Positions 21,289 through 52,118 of a DNA stretch of 64,000 bases are shown here, piece after piece. The notes beneath the pieces were generated by a model that was given only the letters and a program-made list of their open reading frames with translations, did no database searches and was not told the origin of the DNA. How positions within the stretch are numbered: the stretch's first letter is position 1; each line of letters begins with the position of its first letter. Origin of the DNA: a bacterium (GTDB lineage Bacteria; Chloroflexota; Dormibacteria; Aeolococcales; Bog-877); assembly GCA_021827985.1 (NCBI GenBank), contig JAKATL010000003.1:3155-67154 (forward strand). The letters run 5' to 3'. The translations under genes were made by a program, and so were the position numbers.

Positions 21289-21449
21289 CCGGTCCGGCTC
21301 TCTCGCCGGTCCGGGCGACGCTCGGCGCCTGGGCCGGCCGCGGCCTTCGACGGGTGCTTCGGCGCAGCCAGCTGCGCCACCGAATTCACGCCCTGGGGGA
21401 ACCTGTACGGCGGGCGGCGGAGCCCACCGCAGGTGGGCCCGGGAAGCGG

Positions 21450-22766: not shown

Positions 22767-22773
22767 CGGTGAC

Positions 22774-23652
22774 TCAGGGCCTGAGGGTGGCGCTCGCCCA
22801 GGCGACCATGGCCAGCCCCACCTTGTGGCGGGAGCTGAGCCGGACCCGCCCGCCCTGCACGTCGTATCCGTCTCGCTCGATCCGGTCCAGCAGAGCCTGG
22901 TACAGCGCGGCCAGCGCCGCCGGGCAGCCGCGGGCGTCCCGTTCCACCAGCGGCACCAGCTGGAGGCCGGTGCGGAAGCGATCGCGGGCCAGTTCCACCT
23001 CGTGGGCCATGAGGTCGCGGTAGCGGTGGGCATTCGGCCCCCTTCCCCCCACCAGGAGATCCTCCTCGGTGAGCTGAAAGCGCTCCATCACCTCGTCGGG
23101 CAGGTAGCGACGTCCGGCGGCCAGGTCCTCGCCGAGGTCGCGGAGGATGTTGGTCCGCTGCATAGCCTCCCCCAGGGCCACGGCCAGCCGCTCAACCTGG
23201 GGATCCTGGTAGCGAAAGATCCGGGCGCTGAGCAGCCCGACCACCCCCGCCACCCCGTAGCAGTAGTCGGCCAGCTCTCGCTCTGAGCGGATCCTCATCG
23301 GCCGGCAGTCAGCGGCGCAGCCGTCGATCACCTGGTGCAGGTGTTGGGGCGAGAGCGAGAACCGCTGCGCCGTGTCCAACAGGATGAGCCAGCCTGCGTC
23401 CGGCGGGTCCCCGGCGAGGCTGCGTTCCAGGGTGCTGCGGTAGGACTCGAGCCGCCGGAGCCGCCGCCCGGCGTCCTCAGGGGCGTCGGCGATGTCGTCC
23501 GCGCCCCGGCAGAAGCGGTAAAGGGCATGGAGCCCCTGGCGCTTCTCGGCGGGCAGGAGCCGGAAGGCGTAGTAGAAGTTGCCCGCTGCCGCCCGCACCT
23601 CACGGGCGCAGCGGCGGTACCCCAGCTCCAGCTCGACCGAGCTGACGCTCAC
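22774..23652 (-). CDS. hpnD: Presqualene diphosphate synthase HpnD (squalene/phytoene synthase family)
   Basis: Squalene/phytoene synthase DxxxD motifs (YRFCRGADDIAD; NILRDLGEDLAAGRRYLP). GTG start overlapping the hpnC stop (GTGA). Confidence 0.85.
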   Translation of the reverse strand: MSVSSVELELGYRRCAREVRAAAGNFYYAFRLLPAEKRQGLHALYRFCRGADDIADAPEDAGRRLRRLESYRSTLERSLAGDPPDAGWLILLDTAQRFSLSPQHLHQVIDGCAADCRPMRIRSERELADYCYGVAGVVGLLSARIFRYQDPQVERLAVALGEAMQRTNILRDLGEDLAAGRRYLPDEVMERFQLTEEDLLVGGRGPNAHRYRDLMAHEVELARDRFRTGLQLVPLVERDARGCPAALAALYQALLDRIERDGYDVQGGRVRLSSRHKVGLAMVAWASATLRP

Positions 23653-24515
23653 GCGGCGCCGCGCCGGCCCGCCCGGAGCGCGGCCAGGGATCCCAGGAGG
23701 GCCCGGCGGCGCGAGCCCCGGGGCAGCCGGGCCTTGCGTTGGAACACCAGGTCCCCATCCGCCAGCACCCCGTCCGAGGCCTCCAGCCCGCTGAGGATGA
23801 AGGTGGCCATCTCCAGCCGCATCAGCCCCGGCGTCTTCGCCGCCAGCGGCCACCCCTGGCGCAGAAGGCTCCGGGACCGGCCCACGGCGTGGGCCATGGC
23901 CGCCCGCATGGCCGGCGTGGCGCGACCCCGCCACCAATCCGCCTCATCCACCCCGTGCTGCGCCAGCACCTCCGCGGGCAGGTAGCGCCGCCCCCGCTCT
24001 CGGTCCGCGGCCACGTCCTGCCACATGTTGACCAGCTGCAGTCCGGTGCAGATGGAGTCGGAGAGGGAGATCAGCTCGGGGTCGGAGATCCCCTCCAGTG
24101 CCAGCACCAGCTCGCCCACCGGATTGGCGGAGAGGTCGCAGTAGCGGTCCAGCTCCTCCCAGGTCGAGTAGGTGAGCACCTCCTGGTCCTGCTGGTTGGC
24201 CGCGATCAGCCGAACGAACGGATCGCGGCGCAGGTTGAAGCGCTGGATGACCGGACGCAGCCTCACGAACACCGGGTGCTCGGGCTCACCGGTGTAGCAG
24301 GCCTCGAGCTCCTCGCGGCAGCGGTCGAGCTGGCCCACGGGGTCTCCCAGCCGCTCGTCCCCGATGTCGTCCACCAGCCGGCAGAAGCCGTATATGGCGG
24401 CCCTGGCCTCGCGTCGAGAGGGGCGAAGCAGCCAGGCTGCGATGGGGAAGTTCTCGCGCCCGCGGGCGTCCGCCAACCGGGACCGCGAGTACTCCGGCAG
24501 CGTGGCCTGGCTCAC
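23649..24515 (-). CDS. hpnC: Hydroxysqualene synthase HpnC (squalene/phytoene synthase family)
   Basis: YGFCRLVDDIGDE and NMWQDVAADRERGRRYLP motifs. GTG start at 24515 overlapping the shc stop (GTGA). Confidence 0.85.
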   Translation of the reverse strand: MSQATLPEYSRSRLADARGRENFPIAAWLLRPSRREARAAIYGFCRLVDDIGDERLGDPVGQLDRCREELEACYTGEPEHPVFVRLRPVIQRFNLRRDPFVRLIAANQQDQEVLTYSTWEELDRYCDLSANPVGELVLALEGISDPELISLSDSICTGLQLVNMWQDVAADRERGRRYLPAEVLAQHGVDEADWWRGRATPAMRAAMAHAVGRSRSLLRQGWPLAAKTPGLMRLEMATFILSGLEASDGVLADGDLVFQRKARLPRGSRRRALLGSLAALRAGRRGAA

Positions 24516-26452
24516 CAGCTGGACCCCAGCTCCCGGCCCGGTGCCGAGAAGCGGGCGAGAGCCATCACCGGAAAGATGGTGGCGTACAGCCGGTAGCGCA
24601 GGTAGAAGGCCCGGGGGAATCCGGTGCCGGTGAAATAGGGGTCTTCCCACCCCCCCTCCGGGAGCTGCGTCTTAGCGAGGCTCTGGGCGGCGGCCGCGGC
24701 CGCCGCCCAGAGGCGGCCCTCTCTGTCCAGCTCCCCGGAGACCCTGGCCGCCGCCAGGAGTGCCATGAGCGCCCAGCCGGTCTGCGAGGGCGTGGCCTCT
24801 CCGCGTCCGATGTGCTCCGGCTCATGGTAGGAGAGCACCGACTCCCCGAAGGAGCCGTCGGCGTGCTGGTGCTCGACCACCCACTGGCCCAGCCGCAGAA
24901 GCCGCTCGCGATCAACGGGATCCCCGGTCACCCCCAGTGCCGGCGCCACGGCGGCCGCGCCGTACACGTAGTTCACCCCCCATCGGCCGTAATAGGCGCC
25001 TGACCCCTCCTCGGCACGGCGCAGCCAGGAGAGCGCCCCGAGCCGTGCCGGCTCCAGGTCATCTCCCCCGCAGCGAACCAGGGCCTCGACGACGTGGGCG
25101 GTGACGTCGGGGCTGGGCGGGTCCAGCACCTCTCCGAAGTCCGAGGTGGGCAGGTGCTCCACCCAGCTGCGCCGGTTGTCCACGTCAAAGGCCCCGAAAC
25201 CGCCGTCCTCGCCCTGCATGGCAAGGAGCCAGCGGAGCGCCCGCTCCATGGCCGCGCCCACCTCGCCGGGCTCGTGCCGCCGGTGTCCGGCCGCGGTCAG
25301 GGCGCAGAGAACCACGGCGGTGTCGTCGGTGTCGGGGTACTGATCGTTGAAGAGCTCGAACGGCCATCCGCCCGGGGGGACCCCGGGGCGCCTCACCGCC
25401 CAGTCGCCCGGGCGCCGCACCTCCCGTCCCATGAGCCACTCCACCCCGCGGCGGAGGGCCGGATGATCGGAGGGCAGGCCGGCGTCCGCCAGCGCCCAGA
25501 CCGCCAGGGCGGTGTCCCAAACGGGCGAGATGCACGCCTGCAACCTGAATCCCTTCTCGTCCTCGATGCCAAAGCTCTCCAGCGCCGCCAGCCCAGAGCG
25601 CACCGCAGGGTGGTCCAGCCCCAGCCCCCGGGCCCGGAGCGCCATGAGCCCGTACACCCAGGGGGGCTGGATTCCCGCCCAGGATCCGTCCGCCTCCTGG
25701 TGGTCCAAAACCCACCTCTCCGCCCGGGCCAGGGCCAGCCGGCGGGTGGGTGTCCATGGCAGCCGCTCGTAGTGCCGCGCCAGCCGCTCAGCCACCCGCC
25801 AGCCCCAGGTGCCGGCCGCCCGGCCCCGGGCACCCCGGGGCAGCTCACCGGGCTTGGGCTCGGAGAGGGGGAAGACGGTCTCCTGGGTGCGCAGGATGCT
25901 CAGGGGAACCGTGGTGGCTCGGGCCCAGGAGGCCAGGTCGTAGATGCTGCCGGGGAACCGGCCGGGGAGCAGCACCCACTCCGGAGGAACCGCGGGCAGC
26001 TCCCGCCAGGGCCAGAGCCCCCCCAGCGCCAGCCAGAGGCGTGTGAACATCCGGGTGGCCTCCACCCCGCCGTGCGCCGCCACGAAGTCCCGGGCGGCAC
26101 TCACTTGAGGGTGGCCCGGCGGCAGCCCGGCAGCCCGCAGAGCAACCATCACCTCGGTGGTGACGCTCACATCGCCCTCCAGCCCCGGCGCGATCGGATA
26201 GCCGCCATCCGCGCCCTGCTTCCCGAGGAGGTGGCGGACGGCCGCAGCCTCCCTCGCGGGATCGACGACCTCCAGGAAGCGGCACAGTAGGACGTACTCG
26301 GCGGTGATGGAGGCGTTGCTCTCAAGCTCCCCCATCCAGTGGCCATCCGGATGCTGGCGCCGCAGTAGGCTGGCCACCGCCCGCTCGAGGACGGCCCCCG
26401 CCTCCCTCCGGGCGGCCTCCGGGCTCGGCGGCAGGGCCACCTCCAGGGTCAA
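24512..26452 (-). CDS. shc: Squalene-hopene cyclase
   Basis: QW repeats and the DxDDTA catalytic motif (DTDDTAVVLCALT). N-terminal region resembles A. acidocaldarius SHC (LERAVASLLRRQHPDGHWMGELESNASITAEYVLL). TTG start at 26452 overlapping the FPP synthase stop. Confidence 0.9.
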   Translation of the reverse strand: MTLEVALPPSPEAARREAGAVLERAVASLLRRQHPDGHWMGELESNASITAEYVLLCRFLEVVDPAREAAAVRHLLGKQGADGGYPIAPGLEGDVSVTTEVMVALRAAGLPPGHPQVSAARDFVAAHGGVEATRMFTRLWLALGGLWPWRELPAVPPEWVLLPGRFPGSIYDLASWARATTVPLSILRTQETVFPLSEPKPGELPRGARGRAAGTWGWRVAERLARHYERLPWTPTRRLALARAERWVLDHQEADGSWAGIQPPWVYGLMALRARGLGLDHPAVRSGLAALESFGIEDEKGFRLQACISPVWDTALAVWALADAGLPSDHPALRRGVEWLMGREVRRPGDWAVRRPGVPPGGWPFELFNDQYPDTDDTAVVLCALTAAGHRRHEPGEVGAAMERALRWLLAMQGEDGGFGAFDVDNRRSWVEHLPTSDFGEVLDPPSPDVTAHVVEALVRCGGDDLEPARLGALSWLRRAEEGSGAYYGRWGVNYVYGAAAVAPALGVTGDPVDRERLLRLGQWVVEHQHADGSFGESVLSYHEPEHIGRGEATPSQTGWALMALLAAARVSGELDREGRLWAAAAAAAQSLAKTQLPEGGWEDPYFTGTGFPRAFYLRYRLYATIFPVMALARFSAPGRELGSSW

Positions 26453-27507
26453 GAGGCTCTCTCCCCCAGCCAGCGGCAGAGTACCTCGATCTCCCCCGCC
26501 ACCTCCTCCCGCAGCGGCAGCCTGGCGGCGGCGTTCAGCGCCTTCTCGGTCCAGGTGGTGGTGAGGCCCTGGCAGCGGTCCGCCACCCCGCCCTCGCGCA
26601 GAAGGGCCACCGCCGCTGGCAGGTCGCGCGGACCGAGTCCGGGGGGCTCCAACCAGCTTCGGGCCGTGCTCCCCAGGTGGCCGTTGCCACCCAGCGCCAG
26701 GAGCAGCGGAAGCCCCTGCTTTCCGCGTACCAGGTCGTTGCCCACCGGCTTGCCAGTCACCACCTCGTCGCCGAACACGCCGAGGGCGTCGTCCCGGAGC
26801 TGGAAGGCGATCCCCAGCGTGCGGCCGAAGGCCTCGCACGCCGATACCGTGTCCGGCCCCGCTCCGGCGGCGATCGCCCCCAGCGCGGTGGCCGCCCCCA
26901 TGAGCGCCCCGGTCTTGAGCTCCACCATCCTCATGTAGGCGGGAAGACCCTGGAAGGGGGCGCCGGTGCTGGAGATGTCGGCCTGCTGCCCGGCCACCAT
27001 CTCCATGGTGGCACGGCTCAGCTCGGCGCTCGCCCTCTGGGCAACCACCGGGTCCAGCTCCCTGGCCGCCAGCAGTCGGAAGGCCAGTGTCAGGAGGGCG
27101 TCCCCGGTGTTGAGGGCGGTGGGCAGCCCGTATCGGACCCAGAGGGCCGGCTGACCTCGCCGGGCACGGTCCTCGTCGACGATGTCGTCGTGGGCGAGGG
27201 AGAAGTCGTGGACCAGCTGGACGGTGGCGGCCAGCTGGGCGGCCACGCGCTGGTCAGCGCCCAGCCCCTCGCCGACCAGCATGGTCAGGGTGGGGCGGAG
27301 AGCCTTGCCGGGCCGAGCGCCCTCCTCCAGGCCGAGGTGGTAGCGCCCGGGGCCGGCGACCTCGGAGGGCAGCAGCGCGCAGGCGCGCTCCAGGCCCGAG
27401 GTCACCCTCTCCTGGTACCGCCCGAGAAGCTCCTGGGCCGCCCGGGCCAGACCCTCGGTCAACCCCTCGGGGCGCGCCTCCAGGGTGGCCGGCTCCTCAG
27501 AGGGCAC
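26449..27507 (-). CDS. ispA: Polyprenyl diphosphate synthase (farnesyl/geranylgeranyl diphosphate synthase, IspA-like)
   Basis: FARM (LVHDFSLAHDDIVDED) and SARM (FQLRDDALGVFGD) aspartate-rich motifs. Confidence 0.85.
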   Translation of the reverse strand: MPSEEPATLEARPEGLTEGLARAAQELLGRYQERVTSGLERACALLPSEVAGPGRYHLGLEEGARPGKALRPTLTMLVGEGLGADQRVAAQLAATVQLVHDFSLAHDDIVDEDRARRGQPALWVRYGLPTALNTGDALLTLAFRLLAARELDPVVAQRASAELSRATMEMVAGQQADISSTGAPFQGLPAYMRMVELKTGALMGAATALGAIAAGAGPDTVSACEAFGRTLGIAFQLRDDALGVFGDEVVTGKPVGNDLVRGKQGLPLLLALGGNGHLGSTARSWLEPPGLGPRDLPAAVALLREGGVADRCQGLTTTWTEKALNAAARLPLREEVAGEIEVLCRWLGERAS

Positions 27508-28348
27508 GGCAGGCGGCCTCCACCTCGTCCACCACCCAGGAGGGGGTGGAGGTTCCCGAGGTGATCCCCACGCGCTGCCCCCGGCTGAACCACTCCGCGC
27601 GAATCTCGGTGGCGCTCTCCACGAGATGGGTCGGCCGGACCGCAGCGCAGGTCTCCGCCAGGGCCCTGGTGTTGGCCGATCCCCGACCTCCGACCACCAC
27701 CGCCACGTCCACCTGGTCGAGCAGGGAGCGGAGCGCCTCCCGCTGCCGCTGGGTCACCACCGGGCAGGTGGTGTCGCGCACCTCCACCTCACCGCTGCGT
27801 CCGGCCACCACCTCCGCGATCTCCCGGAACCGCGACTGGGGGAAGGTGCTCTGGGAGACCACGCCGCGGCGCTCCCTCCAGGGCAGCCGCTCCGCCTCCT
27901 CCAGACTCGCCACCACCTCGACCTCCGCCCCCTGGGAGGCGGCCCATCCGACCACCCCCCGCACCTCGCTGTGCTCTGAGTGTCCCACCACGACCACCGT
28001 GCCCGCCACCTGGCCCAGGTCCTCGGCGTGGTGCTGCACCCGGCGCACCAGGGGGCAGGTGGTGTCCACCACCTTGAGACCCCGGCGGCTGGCCTCGGCG
28101 AAGAGTTCCGGAGGCGCCCCGTGGGCGGTCACGACCACGCTCGGGCCGGCAGCCTCGGGAAGGGCGTCGGCTTCGCGCAGCCCGCGCGCCTCCAGCTCCT
28201 CCAGGGCCCGGGCGTTGTGCACCACCTGACCCAGGGCCAGCACCTCACCGCCCTCCTCCACCGTCCTGCGGGTGAGCTCGAGGGCATCCCGCACTCCGAA
28301 GCAGAACCCCGTGTGCCGAGGGCGGATCACCTCCACCGACAAGCCCAT
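27497..28348 (-). CDS. ispH: 4-hydroxy-3-methylbut-2-enyl diphosphate reductase (IspH/LytB)
   Basis: Conserved Cys ligands in context (GFCFGVRDA, TTCPLV, TTCPVV); HGAPPE motif. Confidence 0.9.
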   Translation of the reverse strand: MGLSVEVIRPRHTGFCFGVRDALELTRRTVEEGGEVLALGQVVHNARALEELEARGLREADALPEAAGPSVVVTAHGAPPELFAEASRRGLKVVDTTCPLVRRVQHHAEDLGQVAGTVVVVGHSEHSEVRGVVGWAASQGAEVEVVASLEEAERLPWRERRGVVSQSTFPQSRFREIAEVVAGRSGEVEVRDTTCPVVTQRQREALRSLLDQVDVAVVVGGRGSANTRALAETCAAVRPTHLVESATEIRAEWFSRGQRVGITSGTSTPSWVVDEVEAACRAL

Positions 28349-28468
28349 ACCTCTCCCCGATCGCTTAAAGGCCCTAAATGATCCTAAGGGCCAAGTTACC
28401 CCGCCAGGATCGCGTTGGTTGTGATCCTAGTCAAGAGTGGTCTCACCTAATCGTTATGGAACCGGGCC

Positions 28469-28504
28469 CGAGGGTCCCTCCGAGGGTCCCTCCGAAGGTA
28501 CCCT
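28469..28504 (+). repeat. Three tandem 12-bp units (CGAGGGTCCCTC x2, then degenerate CGAAGGTACCCT) in the divergent ispH/ADH intergenic region
   Basis: Read directly from the sequence; noncoding in the ADH frame; 7 nt upstream of the ADH ATG. The motif GATCCTA also occurs twice nearby (28381, 28423). Confidence 0.4.
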
Positions 28505-28510
28505 GGAGGG

Positions 28511-29749
28511 ATGCTGGCGCTCACCTTCGACCCCCGGCCCCGGACACTCCTGCTGGGCGGGGCGGCGTCCCGGCTGCGTGCTGAGTGGGCGCTGGTGGCG
28601 GCGGGCCCGCTGGGGTTGCGCGAGGTGGGCGAGCCCGTTCGGCCGCACCCGGAATGGGCCCTCCTGGAGCCACTCGCCACCGGAGTCTGCGGCTCGGATG
28701 TCAAGGAGGCCCTGCTCCAGGCGAGCTCGGACAACCCCCTCAGCGGGCTGATCTCCTTCCCCCACGTTCCCGGCCACGAGATCCTCGCCCGGGTCGTGGA
28801 GCCGCCCGCGCCCGGGGGTTTCGAGGTCGGTCAGCTGGTCGCGGTGGACCCCTGGCTCGGCTGCCGGGCACGAGGTCTGGACCGGCTGTGTCCTGCCTGC
28901 GAGCGGGGCTTCCCTCCCCACTGCAGCTGGGTGCGCAGCGGCGGCCCCTGGGGGTCGGGGTACGGGATGCATCTGGGCAACGTTCGGGGTCTCCCGGGTG
29001 GGTTCGCCCCCAGAATCACCGCTCACGCCTCGCAGCTCCACCCCCTGCCACCGGCCCTGCCCGCGCAGCTGGCGGTCCTGGCCGATCCCGTGGCGGTCGC
29101 CCTGCATGCCCTGGACCGGGTCGAGGGCGTGCCGGAGACGGTCCTGGTCCTGGGGGCGGGGACCATCGGGCTCAGTCTGGCCCTCGGGGCCCGCCGGCGC
29201 TGGCCCCGGGCGGAGCTGCTGGTGACCTGCGCCTGGGAACACCAGCGGAAGTTGGTCGAGGGCCTTTCCGGGGTGCCGGTGGCCCCCGCGCCCTCCGCGG
29301 TGCTGGAACGGGTCGCCGAGCTCACCGGGGCTGGGCTGGTGCGCCCTTGGAGAGGAGGACGGTGGGCCTTGGACGCCGGTCCGGAGCTGGTGCTGGATTC
29401 GATCGGGACTCCGGGAACCGTGGAGCTGGCCCTCCGCGCGGTCCGCCCCCGGGGACAGCTTGTGACCGTCGGAGTCGCCCGGCCGGGCCGGGCGGAGACC
29501 ACTCTCGCCTACTTCAAGGAGGTGCGCCAGGTGGGCTCCAACGGATACGGAATGACCCCGGAGGGGCACCAGCTGGACCTGGCGCTGGCCCTCCTGGCGG
29601 CGGACCAGGGGCTGGCCGCGGAGTGGATCACCCACCGATTCCCGCTGCCCCGGTGGCGGGCGGCCTTCCGGGCCGCGGCCAGGCCCGACCGCAGCGGCGC
29701 GGTGAAGGTCGTGATCACCCAGGACCGACCGGACGAGCTTGGCGGCTGA
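28511..29749 (+). CDS. Zn-dependent alcohol dehydrogenase (MDR superfamily; sorbitol/threonine-dehydrogenase-like)
   Basis: Catalytic Zn ligands (GVCGSD, PGHE) and structural-Zn Cys cluster (CRARGLDRLCPACERGFPPHC). Rossmann motif VLGAGTIG. Confidence 0.8.
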   Translation: MLALTFDPRPRTLLLGGAASRLRAEWALVAAGPLGLREVGEPVRPHPEWALLEPLATGVCGSDVKEALLQASSDNPLSGLISFPHVPGHEILARVVEPPAPGGFEVGQLVAVDPWLGCRARGLDRLCPACERGFPPHCSWVRSGGPWGSGYGMHLGNVRGLPGGFAPRITAHASQLHPLPPALPAQLAVLADPVAVALHALDRVEGVPETVLVLGAGTIGLSLALGARRRWPRAELLVTCAWEHQRKLVEGLSGVPVAPAPSAVLERVAELTGAGLVRPWRGGRWALDAGPELVLDSIGTPGTVELALRAVRPRGQLVTVGVARPGRAETTLAYFKEVRQVGSNGYGMTPEGHQLDLALALLAADQGLAAEWITHRFPLPRWRAAFRAAARPDRSGAVKVVITQDRPDELGG

Positions 29750-29904
29750 CCGCGGCGGCGGTCAGTCGGCCCCGATCCCGGCCAGCGGCGGGGGCCGGCC
29801 CCGGCGCCGCCCGCCTTAGGTTTCGGGGGTAGTGGCCCCGGGCACACTCTGGCTCGGGCGCCGGTCAGGCCGGCGGGCCCCACAACCGTACGGAGATCTG
29901 CAAA

Positions 29905-32370
<2,466 letters not shown>

Positions 32371-32945
32371 GCGGCCCTCGGCGGGGGAGTCCCTGCCGGC
32401 CGCCCGCCCCGTCAGCGGGCCGGGGCCGCGCGGCTGAGCGGCTCAAGGACGGCTTGGGGGCGGGCGGGCCGATCGGGGCAGCACCGGCGAGGGTGCCGGA
32501 GGCGCCCGTGCCGCTCCCGCGGACCCCGCAGCAACCGGGGATGGACCCGGGGCCTCCGAGGCCGAGGGCTGGGGGCTGCTCGGTGGCGCCCGGCCAGGTG
32601 TGCGGCCCAACTCCGCTCGGGCGCCGTGGGGCCGGCGCCCCGGCTGCAAGACCTACCAACTCCTCGAGAAGTTCCTAATCGCTGGCCGACCGTACCTCGA
32701 ATTAGATCCAGTCAGCACCTGCCGCCAACACCAGGAGGCGCACACTCCGATCCGATCTCAGGTGCTGCCGCCTTCTCCTGATCACTCTCCGGGTGAGCCG
32801 GTCGTCGAGGCGGTGACGGGAGTCGCAGTGAATGATCTCCTTGCCCTTCACCCGAAGCGCCGGCCGCCCCGAGAACCGCGTGGGGCTCTCGATGCTGCCC
32901 CGGACTGCCACGAGCCGCTCCGAAGAGGAGCTCAACAGCCAAGGG

Positions 32946-33286
32946 TCAGTCGGACCCCACGTCGGTGCAATGACTCCTTTGATTGATCTCGACCGCTCTG
33001 CCGTCGGGGTCCTGGGCGATGAAGCGGCAGCCCCACTCGCGGACCTCGTGGTCGACCAGGATCTTCGCGCCGAGCGCCCTCAGCGAGGCCGCCGTGTCGT
33101 CCAAGGACTCGACGTAGAAGCCGACGAACGTGCTTCCCTTCGTCCTCCAAGCCGCACCTACCGGTTCCTGGTCAGTCGAAGGGATCACCGCGGAGTGGAC
33201 ATCTCCAAGATCGGTCGCGGCATGCAGAACACCATCGCCACGGTCTTCTGATTCGAGGTCGACCCCGAGCGCGCGATAAAACGCGA
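32946..33286 (-). pseudogene. 5'-truncated VOC (glyoxalase/bleomycin-resistance/dioxygenase) family gene, cut by the IS3-family insertion
   Basis: The minus frame reads ...SIAFYRALGVDLESEDRGDGVLHAATDLGDVHSAVIPSTDQEPVGAAWRTKGSTFVGFYVESLDDTAASLRALGAKILVDHEVREWGCRFIAQDPDGRAVEINQ (VOC fold). The first 15-20 residues are missing, and the frame runs straight into the IS terminal inverted repeat at 33287. Confidence 0.6.
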
Positions 33287-33685
33287 TTGATGTGGCCCTA
33301 CTGCACTAGACAGATAGAGGGCGGGCTAACGTCCTTGGATAAGTAGTAGTCATCGTAGCGGGGATGGGGGTTTGGGGGAAGGGGGCCGAAAGTGTGGATT
33401 CCGGGGAAAGTGGGTCGAGGCAGAGCTGTGGGGTGGGGCTGAGCAGGGCTCGGGGACGGTTCTGGGAACAACCGGGACCAAAGCACGCCGCTGAGAAGGC
33501 CGTAGAACCTCGCAAATCACCGCTCATGATGTCCAGGACCCCGACCCTGTCTGCTGCGAGACGTGTCACGTCTGCGGTGCTGACCCCGTCCGCGTCTCCG
33601 ACGGGAGCACTTGGCCCACCTTGATCGTCTGGTTCGGGACCGAAGGGCAACCTTTGCACCGGTCAGGACCTCCTGCCTCGGCGGG

Positions 33686-34682
33686 TCAGGCCGCGCACAG
33701 GGTGGCGCCGGCGGCATAGACGGCATCGGGGGTCTGGCCGTCTAAGGACGAGTGCGCTCGATCTTGGTTGTACCAGAGGATGTAGGTGCGGATACCAGCC
33801 CTCAGCTCGAGGCCATCTGCCAGGGGGTGCAGGAAGACGTATTCGTATTTGAGCGATCTCCAGAACCTTTCGATGAACACGTTGTCGAGGGCCCGACCCC
33901 TGCCATCCATAGAGATGGCGATGCCATGGGCCTTCAGCGCATCGACCCAGTCCGCGGCGGTGAAGTGGGAGCCCTGATCGGTGTTGAAGATCTCCGGGCT
34001 GCCGTAAGTCGCCAGGGCCTCGCGCAGTGCACCCAGACAGAAGGCGAGGTCCAGCGTGGAGGACAGCCGCGAGGCGAGGATCTTCCGGGAGTACCAGTCC
34101 TGGATGGCGATCAAGTAGAAGAAACCCTTCTCAAAAGGTAGGTAGGTGATCTCCGTAGCCCACATCTCGTTCGGACGGGTGACTTCCCGATCCCGCAGCA
34201 GGTAGGGGTAGATGCAGACCTCCGGACATCCTGCTCTCCGATGGGGTGCAGCGGTTCCCTCGGGATTGGCTTGTCGGGGCGGGCATCGAAGTCAAGGAGA
34301 CCGCCCAGCGGCGAGTCAGAGAAATTGACTGCACCACAATCATGTTCGACTCACCAAACTCGAATGTCCAGATCTCTGAGATGGGGTGCGAGGGGTGCTT
34401 GCGACTGGTGTGCGGGCCGGGCGCCATGGAACGAATGTCCATCAGCTGCATGAGCCGCTGAACTCGGCTCCGGTGCACCGGGAACCCGGCCGCCCGGAGG
34501 GCTCGAGTCATCTGGCGCGACCCCATGAAGGGGTACTCCATGTAGATCCGGTCGATGACACTCATGAGAGGAAGCCGTGGGTCGGGCTTGGCTGACGGCG
34601 TCAGGTACAGGCTGGAGAGCTTCACCCCCAAGAGGTCACACTGCCGGGCCACCGAGACCGTGGGGGACTCTCGCTGGATCAT
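33686..34682 (-). pseudogene. IS3-family transposase OrfB (HTH_21 plus rve integrase core), split across at least two frames
   Basis: N-terminal piece 34682 to about 34440 (MIQRESPTVSVARQCDLLGV...RVQRLMQLMDIR). Integrase core 34290-33686 in another frame (YLLRDREVTRPNEMWATEITYLP...DQGSHFTAADW...ERFWRSLKYEYV) with a stop at about 34291 in that frame. No slippery A6G at the orfA/orfB junction (ATGA overlap). Confidence 0.65.
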
Positions 34683-34987
34683 TGCCTTCCTCTCCGCAGA
34701 GCTGCAACGATCCCTGGCCGCGACGCTAAGAACTCTCTCCCCATCTCAATCTGGCCGATCTTCCGGTACCGGGCGTCCACATCCACCGGTGGCTCGCCGG
34801 CCCTGCCCTTGCCTTCGAAGACCTGAGCGGCCTCCTTCTCGAGGCGCCCCTTCCACTGGGTGACCATGGTGGGATGGATGCCGTGGGTCTGCGCGATCTC
34901 AGCGACGGTCTTGTCGCCCTTCAGCGCCGCCACCGCCACCTGAGCCTTGAACTCGGCGGTGAACTTCCTTCTGGTCGTTGGTGCCAT
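34679..34987 (-). CDS. IS3-family transposase OrfA (HTH)
   Basis: MAPTTRRKFTAEFKAQVAVAALKGDKTVAEIAQTHGIHPTMVTQWKGRLEKEAAQVFEGK is the canonical IS3 OrfA. Confidence 0.8.
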   Translation of the reverse strand: MAPTTRRKFTAEFKAQVAVAALKGDKTVAEIAQTHGIHPTMVTQWKGRLEKEAAQVFEGKGRAGEPPVDVDARYRKIGQIEMGREFLASRPGIVAALRRGRQ

Positions 34988-35490
34988 ATCTGTCCTCTTT
35001 ACATTTCATCGACGAGTCCAGCCTAGCCACCTGTCTAATTTCGTAGGGCCACATCACCTCCGCCTGGCCCTGACCGGGAAGGCCGCCCAACACCCTCCGG
35101 CGACCGGCCACCCCGGCTACCTGGGGTCCAACGCGCCCTCGGCTGGCCCTCCACGCCCAGTCTCGGGACCGCAAGCCCCAGAACCCCATCTGTGACCAGC
35201 GCCCCAGCCCGCGACCGCTCCCAACCGGTGGCGGCGCCGCGTCCCTCACCCCTCCCGCCGGCCCCCTCCCAGCCTATCCACTCTTTCAGGTCTGAGTTGG
35301 CCCTTGGGCCAGCTCACAGTTGGGCAGGGTCAGTCACCAAATCCGAGGGTCTTGGGATCTATTGCGGAGCGCAACACCTTTGCGGCTATCCGCACGCACC
35401 ATCGGGTGAATCCACTTATGTCCTGGCTGTTCCGCTCCGGAATACTGGAATGGCAAGGTTTCGCTTCTCGATCGATGAGGAGGATTAAGA

Positions 35491-35943
35491 ATGGCAGAGA
35501 AGGTCCGGACCCGAGTTGACGCGGCTCCTGTGTCGATAGAGGCGGTCAAGTGGTTGCGCTTTTCCATGGTCATAGTGGCGTTGCTGGACGCCGCTGCGCA
35601 CATCTTCGCTTCGCCGGCTTCGACAGCCCCCCAGACGTTCTGGCTGGAGACAGAAGTCGCGTTCTATGTGCTCATCGCGGTCATCTTCCTCTTGGGGCTG
35701 CGCACCTGGTACGTCCCGACGATTGCCTACTCCCTGATCAACATGGTGCTCTTCTTCGTATCCGCCTTCGTCACCATCCCGCTCGTCACTCATGCCGCAC
35801 TTGTGGGCCACGTTCAGTTCGGGCAGTTCTCCTTCGGCAGAGGGTTCTCGCTTGGCGGATGGGTGTGGCTGATTGTCGTGGGCTGGCTGCTCACCAGGGT
35901 GGACCGCGGCAGCAAGCTCGACGAGTTGCTCAAGGAGAGCTGA
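35491..35943 (+). CDS. Orphan hypothetical 4-TM membrane protein in a lower-GC segment between IS elements
   Basis: RBS GAGGAGG (35468-35474), 7 nt, then ATG. Four hydrophobic helices. AT-richer third positions than neighbouring genes. No recognisable family. Confidence 0.5.
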   Translation: MAEKVRTRVDAAPVSIEAVKWLRFSMVIVALLDAAAHIFASPASTAPQTFWLETEVAFYVLIAVIFLLGLRTWYVPTIAYSLINMVLFFVSAFVTIPLVTHAALVGHVQFGQFSFGRGFSLGGWVWLIVVGWLLTRVDRGSKLDELLKES

Positions 35944-35952
35944 CCGTCCGGA

Positions 35953-37053
35953 GTGACAGGGGGTGAGTTGGTGCCGATCCCAAGCCGAGCGCAAATAGGC
36001 CGATTCCTGGCAGCATCTGCGCGCGAGCCGGAAGCGGGATGGGCGGGTTCTCCCCCCGCCACACTTGCGGAGATTCGCCGATGGGCGGTGGAGCGAGTAG
36101 CGCGGGACGGCGAGAGTCCCGAGGCGGTGGTGCGGGCGCTGGGGGTCCATCGCTGGGTGATCCACGAGTGGCTCGGGCGGTACCGCCAGGGAGGGATGGC
36201 CGCCTTGCAGGACCAACCGGTGCGGTTCTGTCCCAGCCAGCAGGGCCCCAGGCGAGGTAGCGGCTGGGCCGCCTGATCACCGGCAAGAACCCGCTGCAGC
36301 TCCGCTTCCCCTCGGCGCTCTGGACGCGCTCAATGATCCCGGAGTTGATCTGGCGCGAGTTCGGAGTCAGCCTCAGCGAGTACGCGGCCGGGAGTGTGTT
36401 GCGCCGGCTGGGGCCGAGCCCTCAGCGGCCCCTGTTCCGGGCCTGCCAGCAGGATCCTGATGCGGTGCGACAGTGGCGGGCGCAGGCGTACCTGGCCACC
36501 CAGAGGTTGGCCGAGCAGGAAGATGCGGTGACCTGCTTCGCGGATGAGGCTGGGGTCAGCTCCGATCACCCCAGCGGCACCACCTGGGCTCCTCAAGGCA
36601 GGACTCCCCTGGGGAGTTCGTCGGGAGGCCGCTTTGGGATGCCCCCGATCTCAGCGGTCTCCGTCCACGGGTGGTTGAGATTCATGGTGACCCCGCAGCG
36701 CATGACCCCCACCGTGTTCGCGGAGTTCCGGCGCCGCCTCCTCCGCCACCGGAAGCGCCCGGTGTTCGTGATTGTGGACAATCCCTCCATCCACAGGGCC
36801 CGCACGCTGAAGGACTTCGTGGAGCAGACCAAGGGCCGCCTGCGGCCGTTCTACCTGCGGCCCTAATCGCCCCGGTTGAACCCGGATGAGTGGGTCTGGC
36901 GGCACGTGAAGAACCACCGGGTGGGACGTCGGGCCGTCAGCGGTCCCGCCCGGTCCCAGGAGATCGTTCTCAGCGCGCCACGACGGCTCGCGGCTTCTTC
37001 TGCGCGCCCCGTCTCCGCTGCACCCCCTGACGTGTCGGCTTACCAACGCTGAG
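35953..37053 (+). pseudogene. IS630-family (Tc1/mariner-like DDE_3) transposase, split into three frames
   Basis: Piece 1 35953-36276 (HTH). Piece 2, frame-shifted, 36277-36866 (ITGKNPLQLRFPSALWTR...TCFADEAGV...VFVIVDNPSIHRA...FYLRP). Piece 3, frame-shifted, 36867-37053 (SPRLNPDEWVWRHVKN...). It ends 1 nt before the IS1380 inverted repeat. Confidence 0.7.
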
Positions 37054-38751
37054 CCTAGCCGCGATCATTCACGGAGGTTGATGATCGCGGGGAGGTGAAG
37101 CTGCAGAAATGCCCTCTGGGAAGGGAAACTGGTGTTGTTGACACACCAGCCACCCCAACCAGGAGGGCACTTCGCAGATGAAGGCTACCAGCACCGCCCA
37201 GGTCGTGGTGGAGTCGGGCGGCAACCAGGTCGCCGCGCACGCGGGTCTTCTCGCCCTGGGCAACTTCGCCGACAGCTTGGGCCTGGGCACCGTGATCTCG
37301 AACGCCATCATTCACACCACCAGACGCCTCCCGCTGCATCACCGGGGCAGGGTCATGGTCCATCTGCTGTTGCTGCTGGCCGGCGGGGGGGAGAGCTGCG
37401 CCGACATCGAGCATCTCCGAGCCCAGCGGCTGCTGTTCCCCGACGTGTGCTCGGACTCCACCCTCTACCGCAGTGTTCGCCAGCTCAGTCCGGAAGTGCT
37501 GGCGGCGGTCGAGGAGGCCGTGGCCGAGATCCGGGCCAAAGTCTGGCACCGAATGCCGAGGGTGTGGCGGAACGAGGGGGTTCTCGACTTCGGTGCTTCG
37601 CTGGTGGAGATCCACTCGGAGAACAAGGAGCGCACCGCCCCCACCTACAAGGGCGGCTTCGCCCTCCATCCCCTCTTCTGCTTCCTCGACGGCACCGGGG
37701 ACACCCTCAGCTCCATGCTCCGGCCCGGCAATGGCGGCGCCAACAAGGCCGAGGACCACCTGCAGCTGCTGGACTCGGCCATTGCCGCCATGCCCGCGGT
37801 GTTCCAGAGCAGCCATCATCGCGGAGACGATCCCCAGCTGACCCGGCGGCAGCTGGCCGCTCGGGCCGACTCCGCGGAGTGCACCGAGGACTTTGAGAGG
37901 GGTTGCCGGGAGCGCAATGTGGGCTTCAGCGTGGTGGCCCGCTCCTGCCGCCAGATCCACGCCGCCATCTCCCTGGCCCTCGATGATGAGTCTCGCTGGC
38001 AACCGGCGGTGCGCCAGGACGGAGAGCTGCGGTGGGGGGCAGAGGTGGCGGAGCTGACCTGGTTCTGCAAGCTCTCGAGCTGGCCCCCTGGCACCCGCCT
38101 GATCGTGCGTCGGGAGCCGCGCCACCCCAGCGCCCAGACCAGCCTCTTCCCCTCACTGGAGCACCGCTTCTGGGGCTTCTACACCGATCGCCAGGGTCAC
38201 CCGGTGGAGCTGGACCGGTTCATGCGGGCCCATGCCCACGTGGAGGACCACATCGGCCGTCTCAAGGACGCGGGCCTGGAGCGCTTCCCCTTCAGCAACT
38301 TCGACGCCAACTCGGCCTGGCTGGCCCAAGTGGGCTTTGCCGCCGACCTGGTCCGGTGGTTCCAGCTGCTCTGCCTGCGCTCTGATCTGCGCCAGGCCGA
38401 GCCCAAAGCGCTGCGCTGGCGGCTGTGGCACGCCCCAGCCCGCCTGGTCCGCTCCGGGCGGCGCACCATCCTGCGGGTGCTCGACAGCTGGCCCGATGCC
38501 AAAGCCCTCCTCGGCGCCCACCGGCGGATGGCCCTCCTCTCCTGACCCGCCCCTGCTGCCCCGGTCCCCACCCTCCTCGGTCCCAACCTGCCCTTGGACC
38601 ACGCGGAAAGCCGCTCGAGCCCTGTGCGGCGGGCCCGTACCGTGCCCGAGCTACCCGCCTGCGGCCAGTCCGCCGGCTCGCGCCGGCCGCAGCCGCTTAT
38701 CCCACCCCCTGACCACCCCTCTGCCTTTCCCCGTGAATGATCGCGGCTAGT
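37054..38751 (+). mobile_element. IS1380-family insertion sequence (1698 bp), apparently intact, 21-bp terminal inverted repeats (20/21 match)
   Basis: IR-L 37054-37074 CCTAGCCGCGATCATTCACGG. IR-R 38731-38751 CCGTGAATGATCGCGGCTAGT. A single 455-aa transposase ORF lies between them. Confidence 0.75.
37178..38545 (+). CDS. IS1380-family DDE transposase
   Basis: 455 aa, the typical size. Central region (KGGFALHPLFCFLDGTGDTLSSMLRPGNGGANKAEDHLQLLDSAI) matches my memory of IS1380-family transposases. Confidence 0.75.
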   Translation: MKATSTAQVVVESGGNQVAAHAGLLALGNFADSLGLGTVISNAIIHTTRRLPLHHRGRVMVHLLLLLAGGGESCADIEHLRAQRLLFPDVCSDSTLYRSVRQLSPEVLAAVEEAVAEIRAKVWHRMPRVWRNEGVLDFGASLVEIHSENKERTAPTYKGGFALHPLFCFLDGTGDTLSSMLRPGNGGANKAEDHLQLLDSAIAAMPAVFQSSHHRGDDPQLTRRQLAARADSAECTEDFERGCRERNVGFSVVARSCRQIHAAISLALDDESRWQPAVRQDGELRWGAEVAELTWFCKLSSWPPGTRLIVRREPRHPSAQTSLFPSLEHRFWGFYTDRQGHPVELDRFMRAHAHVEDHIGRLKDAGLERFPFSNFDANSAWLAQVGFAADLVRWFQLLCLRSDLRQAEPKALRWRLWHAPARLVRSGRRTILRVLDSWPDAKALLGAHRRMALLS

Positions 38752-39243
38752 GGGAGCATAAGATGCTGGCGCGTCCTGGGAGATCTCCGGACCGGCCCGG
38801 TTCGCCGACTCCGCGCCGTACGTGCTGGCCGGCCCTGGGGCCGGTCCCAAGCACGGCTACGCGACCGTGCATGCCCGAGGGGCCACCAGGGGAAGAGGGG
38901 GACCCGAATCGACCGTCGAGGAGGCGTGCCGCGTAGTCCGGCCCGGTCTGGGGGCTGGGGGAGCCGCCACCGGACCTGTAGGAGCAGGTTCAGCCTCGGC
39001 CTGTCGGTGATCCATGCGGATGGTGTCGGCGGCCACTCCCTGTGCTGGAGTTGTCGCTCAAGTGGAAGGCAGGGCTCGAGGCGCGGCATGGCACCAAGCG
39101 CTGGGCCGGTGCATGGCGCCCGCGTCGAGAGGCACCGATTTTCGCAGAGGCTCCCTGCGCGATTCTCCCAAGACTGTCGCGCCTCACAACCCGGGCTAGC
39201 CCGGCAGTTTACCGATCCCGGATCACCCCAGCTGGTGGTATCC

Positions 39244-39867
39244 CTACCGGATTGGTCCCGGCTCCGGGAATCGCTCTCCCAGCCCCCGCCGCAGCCGGTC
39301 CACCACGACCCGCGCCGCCCCCCAGACGAAATCCTGTCCCTGGAGGTAGCCGGGCACCAAAAGGGAGCCGCGGCTGGTGTGGCGCCGGCGGACCACATCC
39401 CTCACCCCGGTATGGGCGTGGAGCAGGGGCAGCCAGAACCAGCCGGAAACCTCGGAGGGATCGGCACGGGGGGCGAAGTCGCGGGTCAGCAGCGCCACCG
39501 CCGGCACCATGAGGAATCCCGAGTGGCTTATCACCACCGGTTCCAGGTATCCCAGAATGCGGACCGCGTCCGGCGGTACCGCCAGCTCCTCCTCCGCCTC
39601 CCTGAGGGCCGCTCTCCAGAGGGTTCCGTCGGAGTCGGTCAGGCTGCCCCCGGGCAGCCCGACCTGTCCGGGATGAGAGCGCAGGCGGTGGCTGCGCCGC
39701 TCCAGCAGGAGGGGCAGCTCGGCCCGGCGTCCGTCGATAAGGGCCAGCACCCCGGCGGCCCTAAGGTTCACCGGCCGAGCGGGCTCATCAGCCAGTGGCC
39801 TGAGGGCTGCGGTGAGCCGCTCCAGGGCGCTGGAGGCGGCGCGGCTGCGAGCATCTTGCTCGGCCAA
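39244..39867 (-). CDS. NUDIX hydrolase (CoA pyrophosphatase NudL-like)
   Basis: Nudix box GQVGLPGGSLTDSDGTLWRAALREAEEELAV (GX5EX7REUXEEXGU). Confidence 0.8.
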   Translation of the reverse strand: MAEQDARSRAASSALERLTAALRPLADEPARPVNLRAAGVLALIDGRRAELPLLLERRSHRLRSHPGQVGLPGGSLTDSDGTLWRAALREAEEELAVPPDAVRILGYLEPVVISHSGFLMVPAVALLTRDFAPRADPSEVSGWFWLPLLHAHTGVRDVVRRRHTSRGSLLVPGYLQGQDFVWGAARVVVDRLRRGLGERFPEPGPIR

Positions 39868-42128: not shown

Positions 42129-43172
42129 ATGGCTGCCACCGAGGAGATCGCCAAAGAGCTGCCCCCGTTGCTGGAGCGGCTGGTGCGGAGGGAGGAGGTC
42201 GGGCAGGCAGGGGCGCGCTGGCTCGGCGACCGGATGATGGAAGGCGCCCTCTCCGGCGCCCAGATGGGGGCGGTGCTGGCCCTGCTGCGCTCGAAGGGGG
42301 AGACGGTGGCCGAGCTGGCCGGGCTGGTGACCTCCATGCGGGACCACAGCCTCAAGGTGGAGCTGGACCGACCGGCTCTGGACACCTGCGGGACGGGCGG
42401 GGACGGGCTGGGCACCTTCAACATCTCCACGGTGGCGGCTTTGGTAGTTGCCGGAGCCGGAGTGGCGGTGGCCAAGCACGGCAACCGGGCGGCCAGCGGA
42501 CGGTGTGGAAGCGCGGACGTCCTGGAGGCGCTGGGGGTGAGGATCGACCTCCCGCCGGAGGGAGTAGCGACCTGCGTTCGGGAGGCGGGTGTGGGCTTCA
42601 TGTTCGCCCTCCGGTATCACCCGGCGATGCGCCACGTGGCCGCTCCGCGTGCCGAGCTGGGGATCCGCACGGTGTTCAACATCCTGGGGCCACTCTCCAA
42701 TCCGGCGCAGGTGCCCTTCCAGTCCCTGGGGGTTGCCGACCCTGCCCTGGCGGAACGGATGGCCGGAGTCCTCGCCCGCCTGGGCGGTGAGCGGGCCCTG
42801 GTCTTCGCCGGCCCCTCGGGGATGGACGAGCTGGGCCTGGACGGCCCATCCCTGTGCTGGAGGGTGGAGGGGGGCCGGGCGGTGCAGGAGACCATCGACC
42901 CCATGGAGCTGGGTCTGGCCCCGGCTGCTCCGGCACAGCTCGCGGGGGGCGGCCCGGAGGCCAACGCCGCGTTGGCGGTCTCGGTCCTTGAGGGGGAGCC
43001 GGGACCGAGGTCGGATGTGGTGGCTCTCAACGCCGCCGCCGGGCTGGTCGCCGCCGGCAGGGCCGGTGACCTTGCCGAGGGGCTAAAAGTGGCCCGGGAG
43101 AGCCTCGCCTCGGGCGCGGGTCGCGAGGCACTGGAGCGCCTGCGCCGCGTCTCCCGGGAGTGGCGCGAGTGA
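42129..43172 (+). CDS. trpD: Anthranilate phosphoribosyltransferase
   Basis: GTGGDG motif (DTCGTGGDGLGTFNIST) and KHGNRAASG, the TrpD hallmark. Confidence 0.9.
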   Translation: MAATEEIAKELPPLLERLVRREEVGQAGARWLGDRMMEGALSGAQMGAVLALLRSKGETVAELAGLVTSMRDHSLKVELDRPALDTCGTGGDGLGTFNISTVAALVVAGAGVAVAKHGNRAASGRCGSADVLEALGVRIDLPPEGVATCVREAGVGFMFALRYHPAMRHVAAPRAELGIRTVFNILGPLSNPAQVPFQSLGVADPALAERMAGVLARLGGERALVFAGPSGMDELGLDGPSLCWRVEGGRAVQETIDPMELGLAPAAPAQLAGGGPEANAALAVSVLEGEPGPRSDVVALNAAAGLVAAGRAGDLAEGLKVARESLASGAGREALERLRRVSREWRE

Positions 43173-51704: not shown

Positions 51705-52118
51705 TACCATTGAGCCGGGTGGCGGGCAGGTGGCCGCGGCCGGAGCGTCCGGTCGAGGAAAGTCCGAGCTCCTAAGAGCAGGGCGCCGGGTAACACCCGG
51801 CGAGGGAAACCTCAGGGAGAGTGCCACAGAAAGACACGGCCGGCGGAGTTCCCGCCGGCAAAGGTGAAATGGTGGGGTAAGAGCCCACCGGCGGCCGGGT
51901 GACCGGCCGGCCAGGTAAACCCCGCCCGGAGCAAGACCCAGCAGAGCCTCGGTGCCGGCACCGCCGGGCTGCTCGTCCGGACCGGCTCGGGTGGGTCGCT
52001 GGAGGCGGCGGGAGACCGCCGTCCTAGATGGATGGCCATCGCCCCTCGGGGGGAGCCCCGCCGCGCGGGAGGCCCGAGGGGGCACAGAACTCGGCTTATC
52101 GCCCGCCCAACCCGCTCC
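51705..52118 (+). ncRNA. rnpB: RNase P RNA, bacterial type A
   Basis: Universally conserved blocks seen directly: GAGGAAAGTCCGAGCTCC (P4 5' strand), AGGGCGCCGGGTAACACCCGGCGAGGGAAACC, AGTGCCACAGAAA, GGTAAGAGCCCACC, GGTAAACCCCGCCCGGAGCAAGA, and 3' ACAGAACTCGGCTTATCG (P4 3' strand). Ends approximate. Confidence 0.8.

Follow-up and report, generated by a model that had tools for sequence, protein, structure and literature searches.

In a 64,000-nucleotide stretch of the Dormibacteria assembly GCA_021827985.1 (contig JAKATL010000003.1, positions 3,155 to 67,154; hereafter the window, whose own numbering is used for all positions), we analyzed a nest of mobile elements lodged between the convergent genes for the ATP-dependent protease Lon and a CoA pyrophosphatase-like Nudix protein. 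Here elements of three insertion sequence (IS) families, IS3, IS630 and IS1380, are packed into 6 kb beside a 5′-truncated VOC gene and a gene for a small membrane protein, and the IS3 element is itself interrupted by a 164-bp segment resembling a miniature inverted-repeat transposable element (MITE). Comparison with island-free relatives delimits the whole as a lineage-specific insertion of about 6.6 kb (approximately 32646-39246). Very probably, about 6.6 kb of foreign DNA entered the lon-nudix spacer at the nudix 3′ end in one lineage of an uncultured soil bacterium of the Dormibacteraeota, and mobile elements then piled up in it and decayed. The features along the locus are as follows:

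29905-32370, plus strand: lon (ATP-dependent protease La), the left anchor; an 821-aa open reading frame (ORF), with Pfam LON_substr_bdg, AAA and Lon_C on an identical protein
32371-32645, no strand: native lon-proximal intergenic DNA, longer than in relatives, from alignment to the relative L132
32646-32945, no strand: left non-coding edge of the island (debris, 300 bp); no counterpart in L132/L134, no Pfam match, weak codon-position GC signal
32946-33287, minus strand: VOC/glyoxalase-family gene without its first 17 codons and promoter, recognized by the C-terminal part of Pfam Glyoxalase, an open frame and homologue alignment
33288-35056, minus strand: IS3-family element of 1,769 bp (1,600 bp without the MITE), recognized by Pfam, NF033516 and its inverted repeats
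33686-34682, minus strand: IS3 orfB, interrupted, in the pieces 34131-34682 (HTH_21) and 33686-34165 (rve/rve_3)
34215-34378, plus strand: MITE-like non-autonomous element of 164 bp, with AGATG duplicated at 34210-34214 and 34379-34383 and an empty site elsewhere
34679-34987, minus strand: IS3 orfA (HTH_Tnp_1)
35057-35490, no strand: non-coding spacer from the IS3 to the membrane-protein gene, without the VOC 5′ end; flat GC at the three codon positions (GC1/2/3), no Pfam match
35491-35943, plus strand: gene for a 150-aa hydrophobic protein (the sequence-only reading's orphan gene), with GAGGAGG 7 nt before the ATG and a GC3 of 0.82
35980-37058, plus strand: full-length IS630-family element, a pseudogene, with both ends kept, from DNA alignment with two intact relatives
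36187-36191, plus strand: second target site of the MITE (CAGGG), unoccupied in the window but filled in other samples by an identical copy, inside the IS630 remnant and 2 kb away
37059-38746, plus strand: IS1380-family element of 1,688 bp; its inverted repeats (CCGCGATCATTCACGG) are perfect over 16 nt, and CTAG stands at 37055-37058 and 38747-38750
37101-37176, plus strand: predicted hairpin in the IS1380 5′ leader, burying the AGGAGG ribosome-binding site
37178-38545, plus strand: IS1380 transposase; NF033539 at 259.8 bits (cut-off 180) over model positions 3-419 of 419, and PF13701 at 165.7 bits
38751-39243, no strand: right non-coding edge of the island (493 bp); flat GC1/2/3, no Pfam match, no counterpart in L132/L134
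39244-39867, minus strand: nudix (CoA pyrophosphatase-like), the right anchor; Pfam NUDIX, and NF007980 at 107 bits, under its cut-off of 134

The island between lon and nudix

The Lon protein of the window belongs to a cluster named endopeptidase La of Candidatus Dormibacteraeota/Dormibacteria, and the relatives in and around this cluster preserve the locus without the island. In six contigs of closer relatives, drawn from the same cluster of at least 90% Lon identity, lon and nudix are parted by an island-free spacer of 170-237 bp with full synteny to either side; these contigs carry neither the IS elements nor the VOC gene nor the 150-codon gene. In four relatives of about 80% Lon identity nudix is again convergent with lon, and the spacer measures only 13-15 bp. 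The contigs L132 and L134 share 92-93% DNA identity with the window at the lon 3′ end; homology of the window to them ends at about 32645 and restarts at about 39244-39250, and the alignment to relatives places the point of entry at the nudix stop codon. On the lon side, the first 10 or so nucleotides past the stop and a block at 32578-32642 (81.5% identical) align to the spacer of the island-free L132. On the nudix side, the encoded C-terminus is shorter by 2-3 residues in the window (39244-39260), ending in PEPGPIR versus PEPAPIEER or PEPAPIREP in island-free relatives; it seems that the island took the place of the final nudix codons and brought a new stop with it. GC content runs at about 0.59-0.69 over 32750-37750, against 0.70-0.76 in the flanks, and the cargo genes have a lower GC3 than lon. 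Pfam scans of the ORFs in all the non-coding stretches (E≤1) returned no match, and a scan of the region for promoters and terminators yielded nothing informative.

The native DNA next to lon holds a further peculiarity. The 3′ end of lon (its last 36 nt, the stop and 5 nt beyond; 32335-32375) is imperfectly copied 67 nt downstream at 32402-32442, with 31 of 41 positions matching, a value reached by 0 of 2000 dinucleotide shuffles, and the 41-nt copy also closes with an in-frame TGA. The spacer of L132 is shorter and lacks this copy. It could represent a local duplication or a terminator-like hairpin; Tandem Repeats Finder reported no array at the lon 3′ repeat.

With sources that are metagenome-assembled genomes (MAGs) and metagenome assemblies, one could suspect that the island, or the way its elements adjoin, is an assembly artefact, namely a metagenome chimera of repeats from different genomes. 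Indeed, many k141 contigs break inside the MITE, and two of them, L005 and L006, switch context within it. However, the region is matched without gaps at 99.7-100% identity by an NCBI MAG, a JGI metagenome, Logan and contigs from more than ten ENA samples, and these independent assemblies (NCBI MAG contig L004, JGI L017, Logan L021, and ENA samples including L019 and L020) bridge the junctions between elements within their respective spans, with L004 and L012 crossing the entire island from lon to nudix. Moreover, the IS3, as judged by its orfA, is found at this locus only (10 contigs), and the IS1380 has a second copy, 91.7% identical and 5′-truncated, in another context. A chimera is hence scarcely credible. 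The lesions described below are likewise not sequencing errors, because the independent assemblies reproduce them.

A sequence-only reading made earlier had described this stretch as an accessory island or IS nest adjoining lon, with three IS families within 6 kb, frameshifts, and some 490 bp after the IS1380 without a convincing ORF, and had called for comparison with the syntenic region of related genomes. That comparison was run, and the empty lon-nudix site in relatives, with spacers of 13-15 and 170-237 bp, bears out the island. The three families are confirmed by Pfam and NCBIfam matches together with inverted repeats; the frameshifts recur in independent assemblies; and the terminal stretch, 38751-39243, has neither a codon-position GC bias nor a Pfam match.

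The insertion sequences and the genes beside them

The IS3-family element is bounded by imperfect 26-nt inverted repeats (33288-33313 and 35031-35056), and an alignment of the two ends, as proposed in the sequence-only reading, finds them complementary at 22 of 26 positions. The termini are of the TG...CA type, with TGATGTGG... starting at 33288 and ...CCACATCA ending at 35056, and the exact 14-mer TGATGTGGCCCTAC is present solely at both ends of the element. Between the repeats lies the family's pair of partly overlapping genes, an OrfA with a helix-turn-helix domain and an OrfB with a DDE/rve domain, which is continuous once reconstructed; the C-terminal piece of orfB alone scores 156.5 bits with NF033516. 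The stop codon of orfA and the start codon of orfB share bases within ATGA. Upstream of the orfB start the −1 frame stays open over about 20 codons, and no A6G-type slippery heptamer was seen in the IS3 by eye; the ATGA overlap suggests that the two genes may be translationally coupled. After orfB the element ends in a non-coding tail of 372 bp (33314-33685), which has no Pfam match and shows little if any GC bias by codon position.

According to the sequence-only reading, this is an old, degenerate IS3 with a frameshifted orfB, the insertion of which was by itself what truncated the VOC gene. In the window orfB does lie in two frames, where that reading stated at least two, and the VOC frame does run directly into the IS3 repeat. 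That reading, however, missed an insertion: the break in frame is exactly a 169-bp insertion, made up of the 164-bp MITE and its 5-bp duplication. In-silico removal of 34215-34383 yields one continuous orfB reading ...KHPSHPIYPYLLR..., and the same locus carries an intact allele in L009/L025 and in the MITE-free contig L026, in which orfB encodes 275 aa. Because excising the MITE restores an intact orfB, the IS3, judged on its sequence, is not degenerate, and the MITE insertion is the only lesion found in it. For orfB the older account is hence refuted.

Nor is the VOC part of that account supported. The Pfam Glyoxalase match (32946-33188, minus strand) covers only positions 69-121 of the 121 in the model. 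The frame is open over 113 codons from the stop at 32946 to 33287, the last base before the IS3 repeat, and exactly 17 N-terminal residues are absent relative to homologues of about 129 aa (126-133 aa aligned, 59-64% identity). With the start codon gone too, the product falls short of the paired beta-alpha-beta-beta-beta modules, about 120-130 aa in all, of the VOC superfamily, and the gene is a truncated member, presumably non-functional. The homologue P0008 is not adjacent to lon and so provides no information on synteny. The bases flanking the IS3 are gat on one side and cct on the other (...cgat / cctc...), which leaves it without a target duplication of 3-5 bp, and the missing 17 VOC codons were not found to the right of the IS3 in the three minus-strand frames from 35057, read by eye. 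Given the lack of a target duplication at the IS3 and the loss of the VOC 5′ end, we infer that the junction arose through a later deletion or rearrangement beside the IS3 and not through a simple insertion. The lack of a duplication is likewise read as the trace of such a secondary event and not as evidence against membership in the IS3 family. Hence the truncation of the VOC gene at the left IS3 repeat stands, but the claim that the insertion event itself is visible there does not, and the account of a degenerate IS3 that alone truncated the gene is, taken together, very improbable.

Downstream of the IS3, the gene for the 150-aa protein is predicted to encode about three long hydrophobic stretches and has no Pfam or NCBIfam match. 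An exhaustive profile search recovered 28 related clusters, 32-88% identical, among 1.84 billion representatives, and one homologue is found in an unremarkable chromosomal setting. With its strong ribosome-binding site and coding-type GC3, the 150-codon ORF is a real gene of a rare family lacking an assigned function.

The IS630-family element is represented by three coding pieces (35953-36276, 36333-36866 and 36876-37052), which match HTH_29, HTH_33, DDE_3 and NF033545 and together display the single DDE_3 domain with an N-terminal helix-turn-helix typical of the family's transposases; with the gene broken, NF033545 scores 88 bits on its central piece and so misses the cut-off of 100 set for the whole protein. 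The protein is 70-75% identical to the nearest full-length copies (307-343 aa) and 86% identical to a partial one of 267 aa. Its relative P0039 (L119), which is multi-copy and found in several contexts, defines an element of 1,103 bp flanked by TA, and the terminal repeats of the window copy align base for base with those of the TA-flanked relatives. Alignment with the intact relatives reveals six lesions: a GTG start codon that has become GCG, the loss of a single base near 36055 and of another near 36245, a 22-nt deletion near 36990, and two nonsense codons, CAG to TAG at 36259-36261 and TAC to TAA at 36864-36866. These lesions bear out the earlier view of the element as a pseudogene. Its description as broken into three frames needs correction: the second and third pieces share a frame and are parted by the TAC-to-TAA change, so the pieces fall into two frames only, broken up by the three deletions and the two nonsense codons.

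The IS1380-family element abuts this remnant. Its transposase is of the DDE_Tnp_1_4 type and of the roughly 420-470 aa usual for the family. If the adjoining CTAG is counted in, the inverted repeats become perfect over 20 nt (37055-37074 and 38731-38750), and one base more gives 20 of 21. The right end of the IS630 reads ...CCAACGCTGAGCCTAG in the window, and in two relatives ...CCAACGCTCGGATTAG and ...CGGCTTAG, each followed by TA; because of this alignment, the CTAG at 37055-37058 can be identified as the terminal four bases of the IS630. The simplest interpretation is an insertion of the IS1380 into this CTAG at the IS630 tip, with duplication of the CTAG and no deletion. Thus, while the sequence-only reading was right that the IS1380 is apparently intact in the window, with inverted repeats identical at 20 of 21 positions (the NF033539 match is full-length), its suggestion that the element probably went into the IS630 3′ end or removed it does not hold as such: the IS630 right end is complete, and the IS1380 sits in its terminal CTAG.

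An alternative is that the IS1380 repeats are 20-21 nt long and include the CTAG, without any duplication; being a palindrome, the CTAG could belong to the repeat. Among four IS1380 relatives from Streptomyces and Kitasatospora, the flanks are CTAG/CTAG twice, CTAG/CTAA once, and CTAA/CTAA once (Streptomyces L116), and in this last case the two copies are direct and not inverted, which supports the duplication. The family is characterized in ISfinder by inverted repeats starting with CC and a 4-5-bp duplication. Two points count against the duplication: the CTAG is palindromic, so that a 4-bp duplication is not provable from the window copy, and the repeat of ISEcp1 contains CCTAG. The four relatives are suggestive in favor of a 4-bp duplication but not decisive; the end of the second Dormibacteria copy and the kinship with piggyBac, both described below, also lend it support.

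The second Dormibacteria copy of the IS1380 (L127, 2742-4378; also in L128-L130) has lost the left 70 bp or so and ends in ...GCGGTTAG; it adjoins a DUF4277 (IS1634-like) transposase gene and an AbiEii-like gene. At the present locus, a C-to-T change at 37226 turns Q17 of the transposase into a stop codon in the NCBI MAG contig L004 and the ENA contig L016, but the transposase is intact in the window. The IS1380 is thus already dying in sibling strains.

The leader of the IS1380 (37059-37190, sense strand) has a predicted fold of −65 kcal/mol with a z-score of −5.8. The Rfam family RF02469 (Ms_IGR-7), a small RNA (sRNA) of Actinobacteria, matches 37055-37175 on the minus strand over its full length with 49.9 bits (cut-off 45). 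At the corresponding position the model also matches three Streptomyces/Kitasatospora IS1380 elements annotated in RefSeq, with 37-43 bits, short of the cut-off of 45, each match lying just upstream of the transposase gene (L115, 78-183; L116, 82-186; L117, 97-183). A blastn search with the leader had no match among plasmids, but the covariance model recovered it in relatives. The Ms_IGR-7 sRNA family thus appears to be an IS leader. If this is true, Ms_IGR-7 would be reinterpreted as a conserved leader of IS1380-family elements that occludes the ribosome-binding site and occurs across phyla, and the overlap bears on how matches to RF02469 are annotated. At the very tip of the element (37059-37090), the first 11 nt of the left repeat also pair with an inverted subterminal copy at 37080-37090 in a perfect hairpin.

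The 164-bp MITE-like element

The element that splits the IS3 orfB has the ends CAGACCTCCGGACAT...ATGTCCAGATCTCTG, which form an imperfect terminal inverted repeat of about 15 nt (CAGACCTCCGGACAT versus CAGAGATCTGGACAT on the other strand, 12 of 16 positions matching). It is too short for a transposase gene, being a small non-coding segment with inverted repeats, and its fold is no more stable than those of shuffles (z −0.28). By blastn, the site at 34215 is empty in L009/L025 (ERZ27237044), with AGATG once and not twice in L009, and in L026 (ERZ27237420), which covers 2.4 kb to one side of the empty site and 0.85 kb to the other. At the second site, which is empty in the window, the left junction is present in L017 (JGI 3300039716) and L018 and the right one in L003 (ERZ27237177), with CAGGG on both sides. 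Both duplications are thus 5 bp long, and empty alleles are at hand for both sites. All copies are 100% identical and share the same end points, and three contexts are known.

Two further joins stand apart from these. In L005 (14311-14560) the element abuts an unrelated gene beginning with a GGTGAIG nucleotide-binding motif, and in L006 (14311-14615) the context changes inside the element and runs straight on to 36187, which would delete 34379-36186. These could represent a third insertion site, a recombinant between copies or a k=141 assembly chimera.

A skeptical interpretation would have the 164-bp segment as a strain-specific indel, a scar of duplication or recombination, and not a transposable element: its terminal repeat is short and imperfect, with 12 of 16 matches, and neither a parent element nor further copies were found. 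The searches behind the latter point also count against the main account of the locus: 20-24-mers from the left end had 0 matches in the metagenome collection, blastn of the element against plasmids gave no match, and an approximate search for its terminal repeats, covering the window and 1.4 Mb of Dormibacteria loci, returned the known copies only. Yet an unchanged copy of the 164 bp, bounded by the same end points, is present at a second site, where CAGGG and not AGATG flanks it, the element abuts a third, unrelated gene in L005, and precise empty sites exist. Such an indel is therefore hardly to be believed. Because the ends are fixed, the 5-bp duplications differ, the empty sites are precise and the copies are identical, the MITE-like element would have moved recently, with transposition ongoing in the natural population, so far as sequence comparison can tell.

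Its termini, CAGA..., match none of the three neighboring IS elements. We tentatively suggest, and consider it rather unlikely as yet, that this is an active Dormibacteraeota MITE mobilized by a transposase type not yet linked to CAGA termini and a 5-bp duplication. A match to its left end from Bradyrhizobium lupini in the genome collection was a 20-mer only, hence due to chance. Candidate older copies in the IS3 tail or the non-coding edges are short look-alike strings, and their local alignments do not exceed those of shuffles. If the element is indeed active, its insertion alleles, which differ among environmental samples, would make transposition followable in a natural population, and the occupied and empty alleles at the two sites offer a possible strain marker.

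Order of events, surroundings and comparison with known systems

Taken together, these observations point to a history in which the spacer between convergent genes would have tolerated insertions and in which further insertions into the foreign DNA would have cost the cell nothing, making it a safe landing pad. From the degree of decay we infer that the IS630 arrived first and decayed, accumulating its six lesions with both ends kept. Because the IS1380 sits inside the IS630 tip, it would have come later, inserting into the CTAG and duplicating it. The IS3, which is not ordered relative to these two, came to abut VOC codon 18, with a deletion or an IS-mediated rearrangement presumably following or replacing a simple insertion. 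Because they are still polymorphic, the MITE insertions were presumably last, one into the IS3 orfB, inactivating the only IS3 copy, and elsewhere one into the IS630 remnant; the element would have been mobilized in trans by a transposase not in the window.

Several observations weigh against this account. Terminal direct or inverted repeats of the island were looked for and not found, and protein-family scans detected no integrase or recombinase in it. The two edges (300 and 493 bp) and the 372-bp IS3 tail matched nothing, and the flanks of the IS630 are TC (35978-35979) and TG (38751-38752) and not TA/TA.

One could alternatively envisage a single arrival of the whole 6.6 kb, as an integrative island or composite transposon already carrying the VOC gene, the membrane-protein gene and at least one IS. 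The clean empty site in close relatives, the GC3 of the cargo genes below that of lon, and the absence of an intermediate state of the island from any contig are all as expected of such an arrival. However, neither att-type or other terminal repeats nor an integrase or recombinase were detected, the three IS belong to different families and include no paired copies, and decay is uneven, with six lesions in the IS630 and intact ORFs in the IS1380 and IS3, though a pre-assembled mosaic would still be compatible with the latter. A one-step arrival is therefore unlikely, if a serious contender, and we favor the entry of foreign DNA followed by piecemeal accumulation and decay of mobile elements. 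So understood, the locus is an ordinary IS nest in a MAG of Candidatus Dormibacteraeota, its elements new, their families known and its general interest low. It nonetheless provides exact boundaries and lesions for three IS and shows the state before and after a small island was gained in Candidatus Dormibacteraeota, a poorly studied candidate phylum represented here by MAGs only.

Elsewhere in the window, a hopanoid/carotenoid-type cluster upstream of lon (approximately 19900-29850), conserved in all relatives examined, codes for a squalene-hopene cyclase, two squalene/phytoene synthases, an amine-oxidase-type desaturase, a polyprenyl synthase and LytB. A trpD-like gene (Glycos_transf_3; 42129-43172) downstream of a hydrolase gene is found in the close relatives L132-L137 and was not detected at that position in L035 and L038, relatives of about 80% Lon identity. 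A bacterial class A RNase P RNA gene lies at 51718-52112 on the plus strand (Rfam RF00010, 223.5 bits).

Among known systems, the IS630 remnant sits with the IS630/Tc1/mariner-type elements by virtue of its HTH_29, HTH_33 and DDE_3 domains and of ends that align with intact 1.1-kb relatives, and departs from them in its six lesions and in the TC and TG that replace the TA flanks. The IS3 element shares with its family the overlapping ORFs, HTH_Tnp_1 followed by HTH_21, rve and rve_3, the TG...CA ends and the imperfect repeats; its closest plasmid relatives, at about 54% OrfB identity, are Bradyrhizobium elements and transposases annotated as "IS3-like element ISMch1 family". It differs in the ATGA overlap without an evident slippery heptamer, the 372-bp tail, the absence of a target duplication and the MITE inside it. 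The 164-bp element is comparable to bacterial MITEs such as Correia, RUP and the Tn3-derived TIMEs with 5-bp duplications in being small and non-coding, with inverted repeats, a fixed duplication length, and identical copies at several sites that show presence/absence polymorphism; unlike these, it has no recognizable parent IS and no notably stable hairpin, and it is known from three contexts. As for RF02469, the match at the IS1380 left end is full-length and above the gathering score, but it lies antisense to the 5′ leader of a transposase gene, in place of a free-standing intergenic sRNA gene, and in a host phylum other than Actinobacteria. The IS1380 element itself parallels ISEcp1 and IS1380 in its full-length DDE_Tnp_1_4/NF033539 transposase and CC...GG ends, and shares a conserved leader hairpin with actinobacterial members; it stands apart in its host, Dormibacteraeota, and in its identity of only about 41% to the plasmid-borne members of Streptomyces/Kitasatospora. 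The CTAG on both of its sides is analogous to the TTAA of piggyBac, which duplicates that tetranucleotide. Transposases of the IS1380 family also serve as the prokaryotic outgroup of piggyBac (PMC10813416).

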